From Candidatus Saccharimonadota bacterium (GTDB lineage Bacteria; Patescibacteriota; Gracilibacteria; BD1-5; UBA6164), in NCBI GenBank assembly GCA_965227835.1, contig OZ245768.1, positions 300,001 to 332,000 on the forward strand: a DNA stretch of 32,000 bases, given 5' to 3'. Position numbers and translations under genes: made by a program. Shown here in pieces: positions 1 to 32,000 of the stretch. The notes under the pieces are model-generated. The model searched no databases, had not been told where the DNA came from, and worked only from the letters and a program-made list of their open reading frames with translations. Every line of letters starts with the position of its first letter. Within the stretch, counting starts at the first letter, position 1.

Positions 1-1
1 T

Positions 2-550
2 CCTCCTGTGAAAATAGGGGAGTTTAAATATATAGGACAAAAAGATTATTATCTTTCTTTTGCTAGACTTTGTGATGCAAAAAGAGTTTGAAATATAGTT
101 AAAGCTTTTAGAGAAATGCCTGAAAAAAAATTGGTAGTAATATACTGACAAAATGATCCCCAAAAAAATGAAATATTTAATCTTTGAAAATGATTTAGCA
201 ATATAGAATTTAGAACTCTTGTAGAAAATGATAGATTTATAAATTATATATGAAATTGTATAGCTACTATATATATACCTGTTGATGAGGATTTTTGAAT
301 GAGTCCAGTTGAATCTATGTCTGCTTGAAAACCTGTTTTAGGGGTAAATGACTGAGGATTAAAAGAATCAATCATACATAAAAAAACTTGATTTTTGATA
401 GATAAGCAGTGAAAAATAGATGATATAATAGATGTGGTTCAAAATTTTTTAACACCAGATAAATGTTTGAAAATGAGAAAAGATTGTGAAGAGAGAGCAA
501 AAGATTTTTCTTATGATAAATTTGAAAAACTCATAAATAAAATTATTTAA
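2..550 (+). CDS. Glycosyltransferase family 1 (GT4-type), C-terminal part; the 5' end lies outside the window
   Basis: The frame is open from position 2 to TAA 548-550 once TGA=Gly (about 11 in-frame TGA). The translation ...[46 protein letters not shown]... is the conserved C-terminal sugar-nucleotide-binding region of GT1-family enzymes. Confidence 0.8.
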
Positions 551-733
551 AAAATTTATTAATTAAAGAGTGAAGAATTGCTTCTTAATAACAAAAATAA
601 ATATTTTTCACAATTTCCTTAAATATAGAAGTTTATGAATATTCTCTTTAAAAAAATATAAGTTTTGTTTTTTTTTCAAAATATAAAAATTCAAATCTTT
701 TCATTAATTCTAAACCTAGAAATTAATTAATTT

Positions 734-1855
734 ATGAATATAAAAAATAAAAAAATAGCAATAGTTGCTGACTGGATAAAAGATTTATGAGGTGCTGAAC
801 TTGTACTTGAAAATCTTATTCATATATTTCCCAATGCTGATATTTTCACTTCTGTTTTTTTTCAAGAAAAAACTAACTTTTTTAAGAACAAAAAAATAAA
901 AACTAGCTTTATACAAAAAATTCCTTTTTTGGCTAAATCTCATAAATTAGCTTTAATTTTCAGACCTATAGCCTTTGAAAGTTTTGATTTTAGGCCCTAT
1001 GATATAGTTATTAGCTCAAGTAGCGCTGAAAGTAAATGAATAATAACAAAACCAGAAACTTTATTTATCTGTTATTGTCATACTCCTACTCGTTATTTTT
1101 GGAGTCATTACCATGAGTATTTAGGTATGATGGAGTTTTGAAGTATCTTGAATTTTATTTGAAAAAGACTCGCTCCTTTTATTATAAATAAACTAAGAAA
1201 ATGGGATTTTGTAGCTGGACAAAGACCAGATTTTTTTATAGCTAACTCTAAAAACACTCAAAAAAGAATCAAAAGATATTATTGAAGAGAGTCTTTTGTA
1301 ATTTATCCTCCTTTGAAATTAAAAGAATTTAAATTAAAACAAACCAAAAAAGATTTTTATTTATATGTTTGAAGATGTATTCCTTACAAAAAATTTGATT
1401 TATTGGTAGATGCCTTCAACCAAAATGGTAAAAAACTAGTTTTAGTTACAAATACAGATAATAAGCTTTATAGAGATTTAAAAATTAAATCCAATAGCAA
1501 TATATCTTGGAAGTTTAATATCTCAAGAAAAGAAATATGCAAACTCTATTGAGAAGCTAAGGCTTTTTTATTTCCACCAGAAGAAGATTTTTGAATAGTT
1601 GTTTTGGAGGCTATGGCATGTGGTACACCAGTTATAGCTTATAAAAAATGAGGAGCTTTAGAAACTGTAGTACAAAATAAGACTTGAGTTTTTTTTGATG
1701 AACAAAATATAAATTCTCTAAATTCTATTATAAATAAATTTGAAAAAATGAATTTTGATGCTAAAGAAATAAGAAAATATTCCTTATGATTTAGTGATAG
1801 TATTTTTGAAAAAAACATTTTAAATTTTGTTGAAACTAAATATAATAAATGGTAA
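734..1855 (+). CDS. Glycosyltransferase family 1 (373 aa)
   Basis: ATG 734 to TAA 1853-1855 is 1122 nt and open with TGA=Gly. The N-terminus is MNIKNKKIAIVADWIKDLGGAELVLENL... The C-terminus ...[44 protein letters not shown] carries the GT1 EX7E-type motif. Confidence 0.8.
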
Positions 1856-1894
1856 TATATAGATAGAGTTTAATTTTTAATTTTATAAAAACTT

Positions 1895-2425
1895 ATGACT
1901 ACGGAGGAAAAGTTTGATATAGTTTTATCAAAATTAGATAGTATTGCTTATTGACAGGAATCTCTTGAGAAAAAATTTTGAGTTGTTGAGATAAGACTTT
2001 GAGCAGTTGAAAAATGACAAAAAGCCCTTGAAAAGAAGGTATGATCCCTTGAAAATAAAGTATGATCTCTTGAAAATAAAGTATGATCTCTTGAAAAGAA
2101 GGTGTGAACAATTGAAATAAGATTGTGAGCAGTTGAAGAATGACAAAAAGTCCTTGATAAAAGGCTTTGAAGTGTTGAGGAATGACAGAAAGTTCTTGAT
2201 AGAAGGCTTTGAAGTGTAGAAAAGTGACAAAAAACTTTGGAAGAAAGATATGAAAGCTTGAGAGAAGACCTTTTAGAGATTAAACATGATATGGATCAAG
2301 GTTTTGAATATACTCATAAATTGATAAATCAATCTTTTGAAAAAATTAGTGAAAATATAGCCTATCAAGATAAAGTTATAGAAATAGAAAAAATAATACA
2401 TTCAAAAAATAGAACTCTAGTTTAG
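1895..2425 (+). CDS. Heptad-repeat coiled-coil protein (176 aa) with tandem 21-nt and 42-nt repeats
   Basis: ATG 1895 is in frame with track ORF 2237..2425. With TGA=Gly it reads ...RLGAVEKGQKALEKKVGSLENKVGSLENKVGSLEKKVGTIEIRLGAVEEGQKVLDKRLGSVEEGQKVLDRRLGSVEKGQKTLEERYESL... There are 14 in-frame TGA, one per heptad. No homolog recognised. Confidence 0.6.
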
Positions 2426-2492
2426 TATTATTCTATGCTCTTTCTTTTTTAATTATTTATAAATTAAATATTTACCTTAAAAAACACCAAAT

Positions 2493-3140
2493 ATGAAAAA
2501 AAATATTAAAATTAAAAACAACAAACCAATTATAGAGGCAGTCACTTCTACTTTAATTCCTACAATTATAGATAAAACACCTAGTTGAGAAAGAGCTTAT
2601 GACATATATTCTAGATTGCTTGAAGATAGAATAGTTTTTTTATGAGAAGCTATTGATTCAAATGTAGCAAATACTGTTATAGCTCAGTTATTGTTTTTAG
2701 AAAAACAAAATTCTAAAAGTCCAATAACTATGTATGTAAACTCACCATGAGGTCATGTTACTGCAGGTTTAGCTATATATGATACTATGCAATATATTGC
2801 TTGTCCAGTTCATACTGTGTCTATATGACTTTCTGCTTCTATGTGATCTATAATACTCACTTGATGAGAAAAAGGTAAAAGATTTGCTTTACCTCATAGT
2901 GAAATAATGATACACCAACCTCTTTGAGGTGCTGAATGACAAGCAACAGATATTAAACTAGCAGCAGAGCATATTATAAAAACTGGAGATAGACTATACA
3001 AAATAATAGCTAAACACACATGAAAAGATATAAAACAAGTTGAGAAAGATTGTGATAGGGATAATTTTATGACTGCTGAAGAAGCATTGAAGTATTGATT
3101 GATTGATAAAATAATAAGTCAAAATTTAAAAAGTAAGTAG
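2493..3140 (+). CDS. clpP: ATP-dependent Clp protease proteolytic subunit
   Basis: ATG 2493 to TAG 3138-3140 is 648 nt. The translation ...[35 protein letters not shown]...[23 protein letters not shown]...[38 protein letters not shown]... contains the ClpP Ser-His-Asp context. The Gly of the active-site SASMG is TGA 2844-2846. Confidence 0.93.
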
Positions 3141-3156
3141 TAATACTTACTTTTTT
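3129..3156. terminator. Bidirectional hairpin terminator shared by convergent clpP and the polyprenyl synthase gene
   Basis: The hairpin is AAAAAGTAAGTA-GTAA-TACTTACTTTTT, with a 12-bp stem. It is flanked by A/T runs on both strands and overlaps both stop codons (3138-3140 and 3147-3149). Confidence 0.6.
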
Positions 3157-31053: not shown

Positions 31054-31263
31054 AGGACTTTATTTTTAAACATATAAAAATTCTTAAATACCTATATATT
31101 AAAACATAATTCTTTTTATTATGCAAATATTTGGCATATATTTTTTATTTTTCCAAATTTTATTAAAAATTTTTAAGAATTTATATACAATTTATCTATT
31201 TAGAAACCATTATTTAAAATGTTTATAATCAAATTTGATTTTTGTGACTATTGAAATAATATT

Positions 31264-31299
31264 AACTCTGTTTTGAAATTTAGATTTCAAAACAGAGTT
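31264..31299. promoter_or_regulatory. Perfect 16-bp inverted repeat (operator-like) overlapping a predicted promoter
   Basis: The repeat is AACTCTGTTTTGAAAT-ttag-ATTTCAAAACAGAGTT. The predicted promoter is TTGATT (31235-31240), a 16-nt spacer, then TAATAT (31257-31262), so the predicted start site falls inside the left arm. The downstream Shine-Dalgarno is AAGGAGG (31317-31323). Confidence 0.45.
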
Positions 31300-31331
31300 T
31301 TGTTATCCATAATAAAAAGGAGGTCAAAAAA

Positions 31332-31604
31332 GTGATAACATTCAAATCCGTTCTTTTACTAAATTCTTCTTCTTTTTCTCGTTTAATTAAAAATGGTGAA
31401 AAAGCTTCTCTACCTAGTGAAGAGTTAGAAAAATATGGGAGAAAAATATCAAAAGAAAATCCTCCTAATAATTTTTTAATAAAAGAAGCTCTAAAGAAAT
31501 TTAATAAAGGACAACATCCAAATGCCACATGCTGGCAAGTTACAGATATTTTTATGTTAAATAGGTATTTCATATACCAATCTCTAAAAAAATTATCTGC
31601 ATAA
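31332..31604 (+). CDS. Small hypothetical protein (90 aa), GTG start, TGA-free
   Basis: A strong SD lies 8 nt upstream of GTG 31332. The ORF is open in both code 11 and code 25 and is followed by a strong terminator. The translation is MITFKSVLLLNSSSFSRLIKNGEKASLPSEELEKYGRKISKENPPNNFLIKEALKKFNKGQHPNATCWQVTDIF... Confidence 0.45.
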   Translation: MITFKSVLLLNSSSFSRLIKNGEKASLPSEELEKYGRKISKENPPNNFLIKEALKKFNKGQHPNATCWQVTDIFMLNRYFIYQSLKKLSA

Positions 31605-31606
31605 AA

Positions 31607-31642
31607 AAAGGGCTAATTTTATAAAATTAGCCCTTTTTCATT
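31607..31642 (+). terminator. Rho-independent terminator
   Basis: The hairpin is AAAGGGCTAATTTT-ata-AAAATTAGCCCTTT followed by TTCATTTT. Confidence 0.75.
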
Positions 31643-31806
31643 TTATAGTAAACAAACTAGATAGTCTCTCTTCAAAAATAGAAACTTCTTACAATAGCAA
31701 AGGGCTAAAGCTCTCTGCCTACTAAAAATAAAAATTAACTTTTCAATTAAAATTGCATTTCAAAATAGTCTAACTTAAAAGTTAGTTCACTATATATTTA
31801 AATTCT

Positions 31807-32000
31807 TTATCCTAAATTACCAGCAACATATTCCCAGTTAACTATATTCCACAAAGCATTTATATAAGATTTTCTATCATTTCTATAATCTATATAATAT
31901 GAATGTTCCCATATATCAAAACCAAGCAAAGCATTTTTTCATTCTTTCAATAGATTTCATGCATCATCGGTATTAACTACTTCTAAATCTCATTTTGAAT
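31807..32000 (-). CDS. Fe/Mn-family superoxide dismutase, C-terminal part (5' end outside the window)
   Basis: The minus strand reads ...[42 protein letters not shown] then TAA (tta 31807-31809). This contains the D-x-WEH-x-YY and VNW signatures of Fe/Mn SODs. Confidence 0.85.

Follow-up and report, generated by a model that had tools for sequence, protein, structure and literature searches.

The locus described here raises the question of how its codons are read. It is a stretch of 32,000 nt, positions 300,001–332,000 of contig OZ245768.1 in assembly GCA_965227835.1 (hereafter the window, numbered 1..32000), with a GC content of 24.5%, and its annotation with the standard code (translation table 11) yields fragments only. 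A first-pass annotation had proposed that UGA is decoded as glycine in this DNA, as in table 25 of Gracilibacteria and Absconditabacteria (SR1). The best overall explanation, to which we assign a probability of roughly 0.9, is an AT-rich genome of the Gracilibacteria type that uses table 25 together with one further change, the reading of CGG as tryptophan.

When the window is read with table 11, 19.7% of it lies in stop-to-stop open reading frames (ORFs) of at least 100 aa and 0% in those of 200 aa or more. Treating TGA as a sense codon raises these values to 85.6% and 70.6%, respectively, with a longest ORF of 723 codons. As controls, the share of the window in ORFs of this greater length was 0% when TAG was freed instead and 18.8% when TAA was, and it was 0% in 50 shuffles of the sequence. 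The TGA-sense signal in the window is real and lies far beyond chance. Table 11 gives 74 ORFs of 60 aa or more, of which 43 run antisense to TGA-sense genes, 20 are in-frame fragments of such genes, 10 lie elsewhere, and one is on the same strand out of frame, in agreement with the dismissal of these ORFs as fragments or antisense noise in the first-pass annotation.

The 28 genes called with TGA as sense (8355 codons) contain 349 in-frame TGA codons. They end with TAA in 16 cases and TAG in 12, which is true by construction of the gene calls, and the C-termini of ClpP, UppS, and UvrB coincide with the ends of their homologs, supporting the retention of UAA and UAG as stops. Across the window, TGA (349) is far more frequent than GGT (74), GGA (46), GGG (10), or GGC (7), so that it makes up 72% of the Gly-type codons (349 TGA vs. 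137 GGN). In clpP the numbers are 11 TGA and 5 GGN, exactly the 11 of 16 glycines given initially when TGA was called the majority Gly codon. The motifs and genes on which most of the following comparisons rest are listed below, and all of the motif TGA codons cited at the outset were found in frame.

734..1855, plus strand: glycosyltransferase GT4/GT1 (Pfam Glycos_transf_1), 11 TGA
2493..3140, plus strand: ClpP protease, 11 TGA; motif LSASM[TGA]S, TGA at 2844-2846
3147..4043, minus strand: polyprenyl (farnesyl/geranylgeranyl) diphosphate synthase, IspA, 19 TGA
4050..4796, minus strand: undecaprenyl diphosphate synthase, UppS, 17 TGA; motif RTG[TGA]D, TGA at 4197-4199
4868..5941, minus strand: SecF, 14 TGA
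7440..9605, plus strand: UvrB, 24 TGA; motif GVTGS[TGA]KT (fuller context TLWGVTGS[TGA]KT), TGA at 7560-7562
12755..13825, plus strand: Fic protein (Fic_N + Fic), 19 TGA; motif HPFYD[TGA]NGRT[TGA]R, first TGA at 13352-13354
13829..15268, plus strand: HsdM, type I restriction-modification methylase, 21 TGA; motif NPPFG[TGA]K, TGA at 14678-14680
19293..21035, minus strand: GmrSD-type restriction endonuclease, 20 TGA; motif LLD[TGA]QQR, TGA at 20775-20777

Ten recognisable proteins were scored against Pfam profiles with TGA translated either as Gly or as Trp, and the Gly version scored higher in all ten. Examples, with the Gly score given before the Trp score, are ClpP (271.9 and 226.0 bits), UppS (210.6 and 166.6), HsdM (210.1 and 172.5), IspA (162.7 and 133.6), SecF (160.3 and 139.4), GmrSD_N (102.5 and 78.4), and the glycosyltransferase at 734..1855 (99.4 and 74.6). 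Because Trp is penalised almost anywhere in such profiles, we added a 20-way test in the manner of Codetta, in which log-odds were computed for all codons of UvrB aligned to 36 standard-code UvrB sequences (mostly from Oscillospiraceae, other Clostridia, and Actinomycetota). Of the TGA codons, 18 can be aligned; 11 of these lie on columns with 94–100% Gly among the homologs, and none lies on a Trp column. The summed log-odds for TGA amount to +32.9 bits for Gly, followed by −56.1 bits for Glu as the next best residue, and Trp (−76.5 bits) shares the last place among the 20 amino acids. Among the well-sampled codons in this screen only TGA departs from the standard code; other deviations were confined to codons seen no more than three times and were judged to be noise.

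Solved structures point in the same direction. In alignments of ClpP, UppS, HsdM, IspA, and SecF to their best PDB homologs, made with the TGA positions masked as X and counted by script, Gly lies opposite TGA at 39 of the 64 positions that align, against a background of 6.6% Gly (binomial P = 6e-30). For ClpP alone, 10 of 11 TGA codons are opposite Gly in structure 8r03_A. Six Trp positions of the PDB homologs are opposite TGG in the query proteins.

Synonymous interchange among UvrB orthologs was examined with the window and five loci from Gracilibacteria or 'Peribacteria' (L001-L005). All five orthologs carry in-frame TGA, with 5–27 such codons each. In 534 ordered pairs, the codons opposite TGA comprise 232 Gly codons, 178 TGA, and no Trp codon; TGG pairs with Trp 106 times and with TGA not at all. 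The composition of the proteins differs accordingly between the two readings, at 5.8% Gly and 0.6% Trp if TGA is Gly and at 1.6% Gly and 4.8% Trp if it is Trp. The initial claim that TGA sits on invariant glycines rather than tryptophans is thus upheld by the UvrB log-odds, the PDB alignments, and the ortholog pairs alike.

Some observations weigh on the other side. About 40% of the aligned TGA codons are opposite non-Gly residues in the single best PDB homolog, and one of the 64 is opposite Trp, in a gapped and poorly aligned stretch of SecF. A non-Gly share of this size is the level expected for variable positions, though it is not zero. ARAGORN detected no tRNA gene in the window or in L001-L005, and with neither a tRNA nor a release-factor gene in the window, the decoding machinery is inferred. 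All in all, we regard it as virtually certain that UGA means glycine in the organism of the window, a meaning established as firmly as sequence comparison allows.

The best named relatives of the window's UvrB, at 64–72% identity, are all Candidatus Gracilibacteria. Judged by these relatives, the window comes from the chromosome of a very AT-rich member of the Gracilibacteria/Absconditabacteria within the candidate phyla radiation. UGA is known to encode Gly in both groups, where this is linked to a tRNA-Gly(UCA) and to the absence of release factor 2 (RF2), and two 'Gracilibacteria' genomes that have RF2 and lack tRNA-Gly(UCA) were judged not to be recoded (PMC8629427). For the code itself, PMC8629427 cites Campbell et al. 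2013 and Rinke et al. 2013. A related case of UGA as Gly has been described for a BD1-5/SN-2 bacterium (Hanke et al. 2014, PMC4032931), and a search of that report for statements on tRNA or release factors yielded none. The window resembles the table 25 lineages in that UGA is a sense codon on Gly positions, only UAA and UAG serve as stops, GC content is low, and orthologs carry in-frame TGA. The main interpretation of the first-pass annotation was correct, and the glycine reading is a textbook instance of code 25 in a known lineage and not new. The window differs from table 25 in two respects: TGA is the dominant Gly codon and not a minor extra one, and CGG in this organism is apparently Trp. 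What we add is that code 4 is rejected on quantitative grounds, that public entries are shown to be mistranslated, and that there is evidence for the second codon.

Reassignments of sense codons are very rare in bacteria, having been found in five clades in the 2021 screen (PMC8629427). We examined the rare CGN codons of the window because the same work predicts, by Codetta, that both CGA and CGG have become Trp in Absconditabacteria and that CGG has become Trp in some Gracilibacteria (Shulgina and Eddy 2021, PMC8629427). The Arg-type codons of the window are dominated by AGA (252 of 330 Arg codons), with CGT (16), CGA (8), CGG (3), and CGC (3) following, and none of the ORFs of at least 120 aa on L057, a 16.7-kb contig of a sister strain, contains CGG. 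The three CGG codons (3 of 8355, or 3.6 per 10,000) represent two independent sites, both in transposase genes of insertion sequences (ISs), which are given here with their elements.

22619..23908, plus strand: IS-B, intact, with an IS4-type DDE transposase at 22679-23896 (16 TGA from the first ATG, 17 stop-to-stop)
25070..27569, minus strand: IS-B copy 2, split into 25070-25631 and 26834-27569
23510-23512, plus strand: CGG site 1, in the IS-B transposase, EEYKQR[CGG]EIETIFKTMKQ, with the same CGG in copy 2 at 25466-25468
10341..11234, minus strand: IS30-family transposase copy; premature TAA, 11235-11237
10992-10994, minus strand: CGG site 2, in the IS30-family transposase, SPKTIAKK[CGG]N

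In IS-B, the codon lies within the context Y..R[CGG]EIE, at a column that is W in 85 of 99 homologs; all 14 sequences with 'R' belong to the 17 nearest relatives. Changing this single residue from R to W raises the score against Pfam DDE_Tnp_1 from 38.8 to 45.6 bits. At the DNA level, in 19 metagenome loci with the IS-B motif, the 'R' is CGG in all cases (L058-L061, and likewise the two copies in the window) and the W is always TGG (L062-L076). Genes of the 'R' type contain no CGG besides this one, and at eight conserved true-Arg columns of the IS-B clade all 40 codons are AGA or AGG. A CGA codon of IS-B is found at a variable column without Trp.

The second site shows the same exchange in an IS30-type gene. 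Its column is W in 108 of 120 homologs, and the 12 sequences with 'R' are scattered among the matches. The DNA of seven homologs was compared, with four 'R' encoded by CGG and three 'W' by TGG; for these three, the possibility that the database 'W' at this position is a TGA translated with code 4 was thereby ruled out. In the homolog L081, TGG is missing altogether and CGG occurs four times, always on columns where the other sequences mostly have TGG, the PYSSW core motif among them, and in L084 CGG is also found at the PYSSW motif. Over eight IS30 sequences, CGG stands opposite TGG in 39 pairs and opposite Tyr in 2, and opposite an Arg codon in none, whereas CGA pairs with Arg codons (64; AGA, AGG, and CGT) and Lys (25) and never with TGG. 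On this basis the Absconditabacteria form of the change, with CGA as Trp, was rejected for the lineage of the window.

Several points argue for caution. The evidence for CGG in the window comes from two independent sites, both in mobile-element genes, one of them in a copy that is probably a pseudogene. Retention of CGG through divergence was considered as a further argument and was dropped, as about 74% of same-amino-acid codons are kept pairwise and codon retention alone carries no significance for the tryptophan reading. In IS-B relatives of higher GC (L065, L066, L069, and L070; GC 0.38–0.50), CGG occurs 3–9 times per gene and lies on Arg or Lys columns. These relatives retain 5–7 in-frame TGA per IS-B-family gene, and their use of CGG at Arg/Lys columns indicates that the change of CGG to Trp is not universal among hosts in which UGA is Gly. 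In relatives of low GC, CGG is absent or found at the Trp column only. Moreover, the ISs could have come from a host in which CGG has a different meaning. On balance, we consider it quite likely that CGG is read as Trp and CGA as Arg in the organism of the window. The initial designation as table 25 accordingly keeps its first part, since UGA as Gly stands, and probably falls short as a description of the whole code, with both distinct CGG sites on conserved Trp columns; table 25 without the CGG change names the right family and probably an incomplete code.

The strongest competitor is the unmodified table 25, in which CGG remains Arg and both transposases carry Trp-to-Arg substitutions, each attainable by a single mutation from TGG to CGG. 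In its favour are the small number of independent CGG sites in the window, the confinement of the IS-B 'R' to one clade, where it could be a single inherited substitution, the pairwise synonymous retention of about 74%, which makes the persistence of CGG not improbable, and the Arg/Lys columns occupied by CGG in the relatives of higher GC. Such an account has to accept that both CGG codons landed on Trp columns, which make up only about 2 of 405 columns in one case and 4 of about 300 in the other, a joint chance that we estimate ourselves at about 1e-4. It also has to accept that the affected tryptophans belong to conserved motifs (RW.IE and PYSSW) of recently transposed elements, that the CGG state in the IS30 family is not clonal but scattered among homologs and recurs at four different Trp columns, with one gene having exchanged all of its TGG for CGG, and that CGG never has an Arg codon as partner in the IS30 set while CGA does. 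We hold it to be unlikely.

The remaining two accounts concern UGA itself and are both exceedingly improbable. Code 4, in which UGA is Trp as in Mycoplasma, Spiroplasma, and several insect endosymbionts, would fit the GC content of 24.5%, and the window shares with table 4 organisms an AT-rich, reduced genome in which UGA is read as sense. Four public protein entries (P0001, P0358, P0121, and P0220) do show W at TGA, which reflects only the caller's choice of table. Unlike in those organisms, the UGA positions of the window are Gly and never Trp, and TGG is still the main Trp codon, opposite which the Trp positions of homologs are found. The alignments of TGA positions refute this code: the log-odds for Trp at the UvrB TGA codons are strongly negative, none of the 534 ortholog pairs and one of the 64 PDB positions has Trp, all ten Pfam comparisons prefer Gly, and the proteins would have to contain three times as much Trp as Gly. 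A standard code with broken genes, whether by decay of the region, sequencing artefact, selenocysteine, or read-through of TGA, could appeal to the longest table-11 ORF being only 170 aa. It is refuted by the conservation of TGA on Gly and the absence of TAA and TAG inside the 28 long frames in spite of their 349 TGA codons, when shuffled sequences never yield an ORF of 200 aa or more. Conservation of the TGA positions is seen between strains as well as between species, and the sister contig L057 has 96–99% DNA identity over most shared housekeeping segments in the same gene order. Selenocysteine would be expected to produce Cys/Sec columns and not Gly.

Under table 25 with CGG as Trp, the reading of the window would proceed as follows. 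Ribosomes would read UGA as Gly, with only UAA and UAG terminating translation, and from what is known of the lineage UGA would be decoded by tRNA-Gly(UCA) after loss of RF2 (PMC8629427). AT mutational pressure would favour TGA over GGN and so make TGA the main Gly codon. UvrB genes broadly contain more TGA codons where GC is lower, with 5 in two loci at 35–38% GC and 24–27 in the window and three loci at 21–34%, which fits AT pressure driving the change from GGN to TGA. The nearly extinct CGG would be read as Trp, presumably via a tRNA(CCG) with Trp identity, with CGA remaining Arg. This resembles the prediction for Absconditabacteria and Gracilibacteria in that CGG is very rare, lies on Trp columns, and interchanges with TGG in a low-GC genome dominated by AGA. 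It differs from the Absconditabacteria form with both CGA and CGG in that the lineage of the window appears to have changed CGG only, CGA staying Arg in the transposases, with evidence drawn from mobile-element genes alone.

A gene caller that decides between tables 11 and 4 on the basis of coding density will settle on table 4 for genomes of this kind. The UvrB entry P0358, from an NCBI/ENA contig of 1,489,121 bp, is identical to the UvrB of the window except for W at all 24 TGA codons. P0001, the representative of the UvrB cluster, from a 29-kb ENA contig of sample ERZ25074195, has the same W pattern and five real differences. On the 1,489,121-bp contig of P0358, the entries P0121 (IS-B) and P0220 (IS30-like) likewise have W at every TGA position. 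The public protein entries for the genome of the window are translated with code 4 and hence mistranslated. Annotation with table 4 gives full-length proteins in which Trp takes the place of Gly at about 4% of positions, and annotation with table 25 would put Arg for Trp in conserved transposase motifs. Such mistranslations propagate to homology searches, structure prediction, and family profiles.

The genes for ClpP, IspA, UppS, SecF, UvrB, and the glycosyltransferase at 734..1855 form a housekeeping block, to which the first two genes listed here also belong; a transfer-messenger RNA (tmRNA) follows the block, and the last gene lies at the right edge.

2..550, plus strand: glycosyltransferase group 1, C-terminal part, truncated by the left edge (open frame with 10 TGA, of which 9 follow the first ATG)
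1895..2425, plus strand: coiled-coil repeat protein (14 TGA vs. 1 GGN)
9691..10178, plus strand: tmRNA (Rfam RF00023, 50.2 bits; gathering score 47)
31807..31998, minus strand: Fe/Mn superoxide dismutase, C-terminal end, running off the right edge, assigned by motif and by synteny with Sod_Fe at the end of L057

The coiled-coil protein is built of 11-residue repeats such as LEKKVGSLENKVG, and the Gly of nearly every repeat is encoded by TGA. In the superoxide dismutase fragment there are three TGA codons, and all three Trp are TGG. The tmRNA gene just downstream of uvrB was missed by ARAGORN; its inferred tag ANFRKTAGSALTALKNAFRPPALATVVA (9788-9871; frame to 9874 with the stop) ends with TAA and contains no TGA. 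A tmRNA gene likewise follows uvrB in locus L004.

The window also contains ISs other than those already listed.

6154..7377, plus strand: IS-A copy 1, transposase 6297-7373, 13 TGA
21311..22534, minus strand: IS-A copy 2, 99% identical to copy 1
29207..30392, plus strand: IS-A copy 3
about 25632-26833, plus strand: IS-C, IS5-like (DUF772 + DDE_Tnp_1), transposase 25717-26682, inserted within IS-B copy 2

IS-A is a 1.2-kb element whose three copies are 99–100% identical, and its transposase has weak Pfam matches only (integrase-core, helix-turn-helix). The C-terminal tail of the transposase differs in each copy, and the frame of copy 2 overruns the repeat to a stop at 21198. L057 has no counterpart of the IS30 copy or of IS-A copies 1 and 3. 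In the IS30 copy, the TAA at 11235-11237 replaces a Ser of P0220, an intact sibling from the same genome that has the same 'R' at the CGG site, and the copy in the window is probably a pseudogene. The IS elements carry 11–17 TGA codons each and are therefore native to recoded hosts. A non-coding direct repeat of 351 nt (16606-16956 and 23904-24253; 99.4% identical) abuts the end of IS-B with one of its copies and could be an IS end or a fragment resembling a miniature inverted-repeat transposable element; smaller stretches related to it are found at 18127-18207, 23824-23904, and 25074-25154.

Together with the Fic, HsdM, and GmrSD genes listed above, the following genes are of a defence type.

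11430..11951, plus strand: P-loop kinase resembling AAA_33/zeta toxin, 5 TGA
15321..16325, plus strand: RhuM-family protein (346.8 bits), 11 TGA
17092..18075, minus strand: protein with a RhuM N-terminal region and Fic/DOC, 14 TGA

Comparison with the sister strain showed that the region from about 12510 to 25628, with the genes for Fic, HsdM, RhuM, RhuM/Fic-DOC, and GmrSD as well as IS copies, is absent from L057 save for a 142-nt repeat match at 24926-25064. L057 has an AbiEii/DUF2779 gene between the shared flanks and is otherwise largely colinear with the window. The stretch of about 12.5–25.6 kb looks like a strain-variable defence island.

The transposase relatives look like a natural series of stages in the loss and capture of CGG, which is found on Arg and Lys columns at higher GC, is absent from some genes of low GC, and occupies Trp positions in others, up to the complete replacement of TGG in one gene. 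This is the sequence expected under the codon-capture model. We consider it likely that the organism uses a two-change code, with UGA as Gly, CGG as Trp, and CGA as Arg, and that recently transposing elements of the IS4 and IS30 types carry both recodings in codons of their catalytic motifs. Such a code is contained in no NCBI table and has so far been just a computational prediction for 'some Gracilibacteria'. Our comparison suggests that the IS pool may be adapted to recoded hosts, with a switch between TGG and CGG that recurs and can be traced codon by codon.

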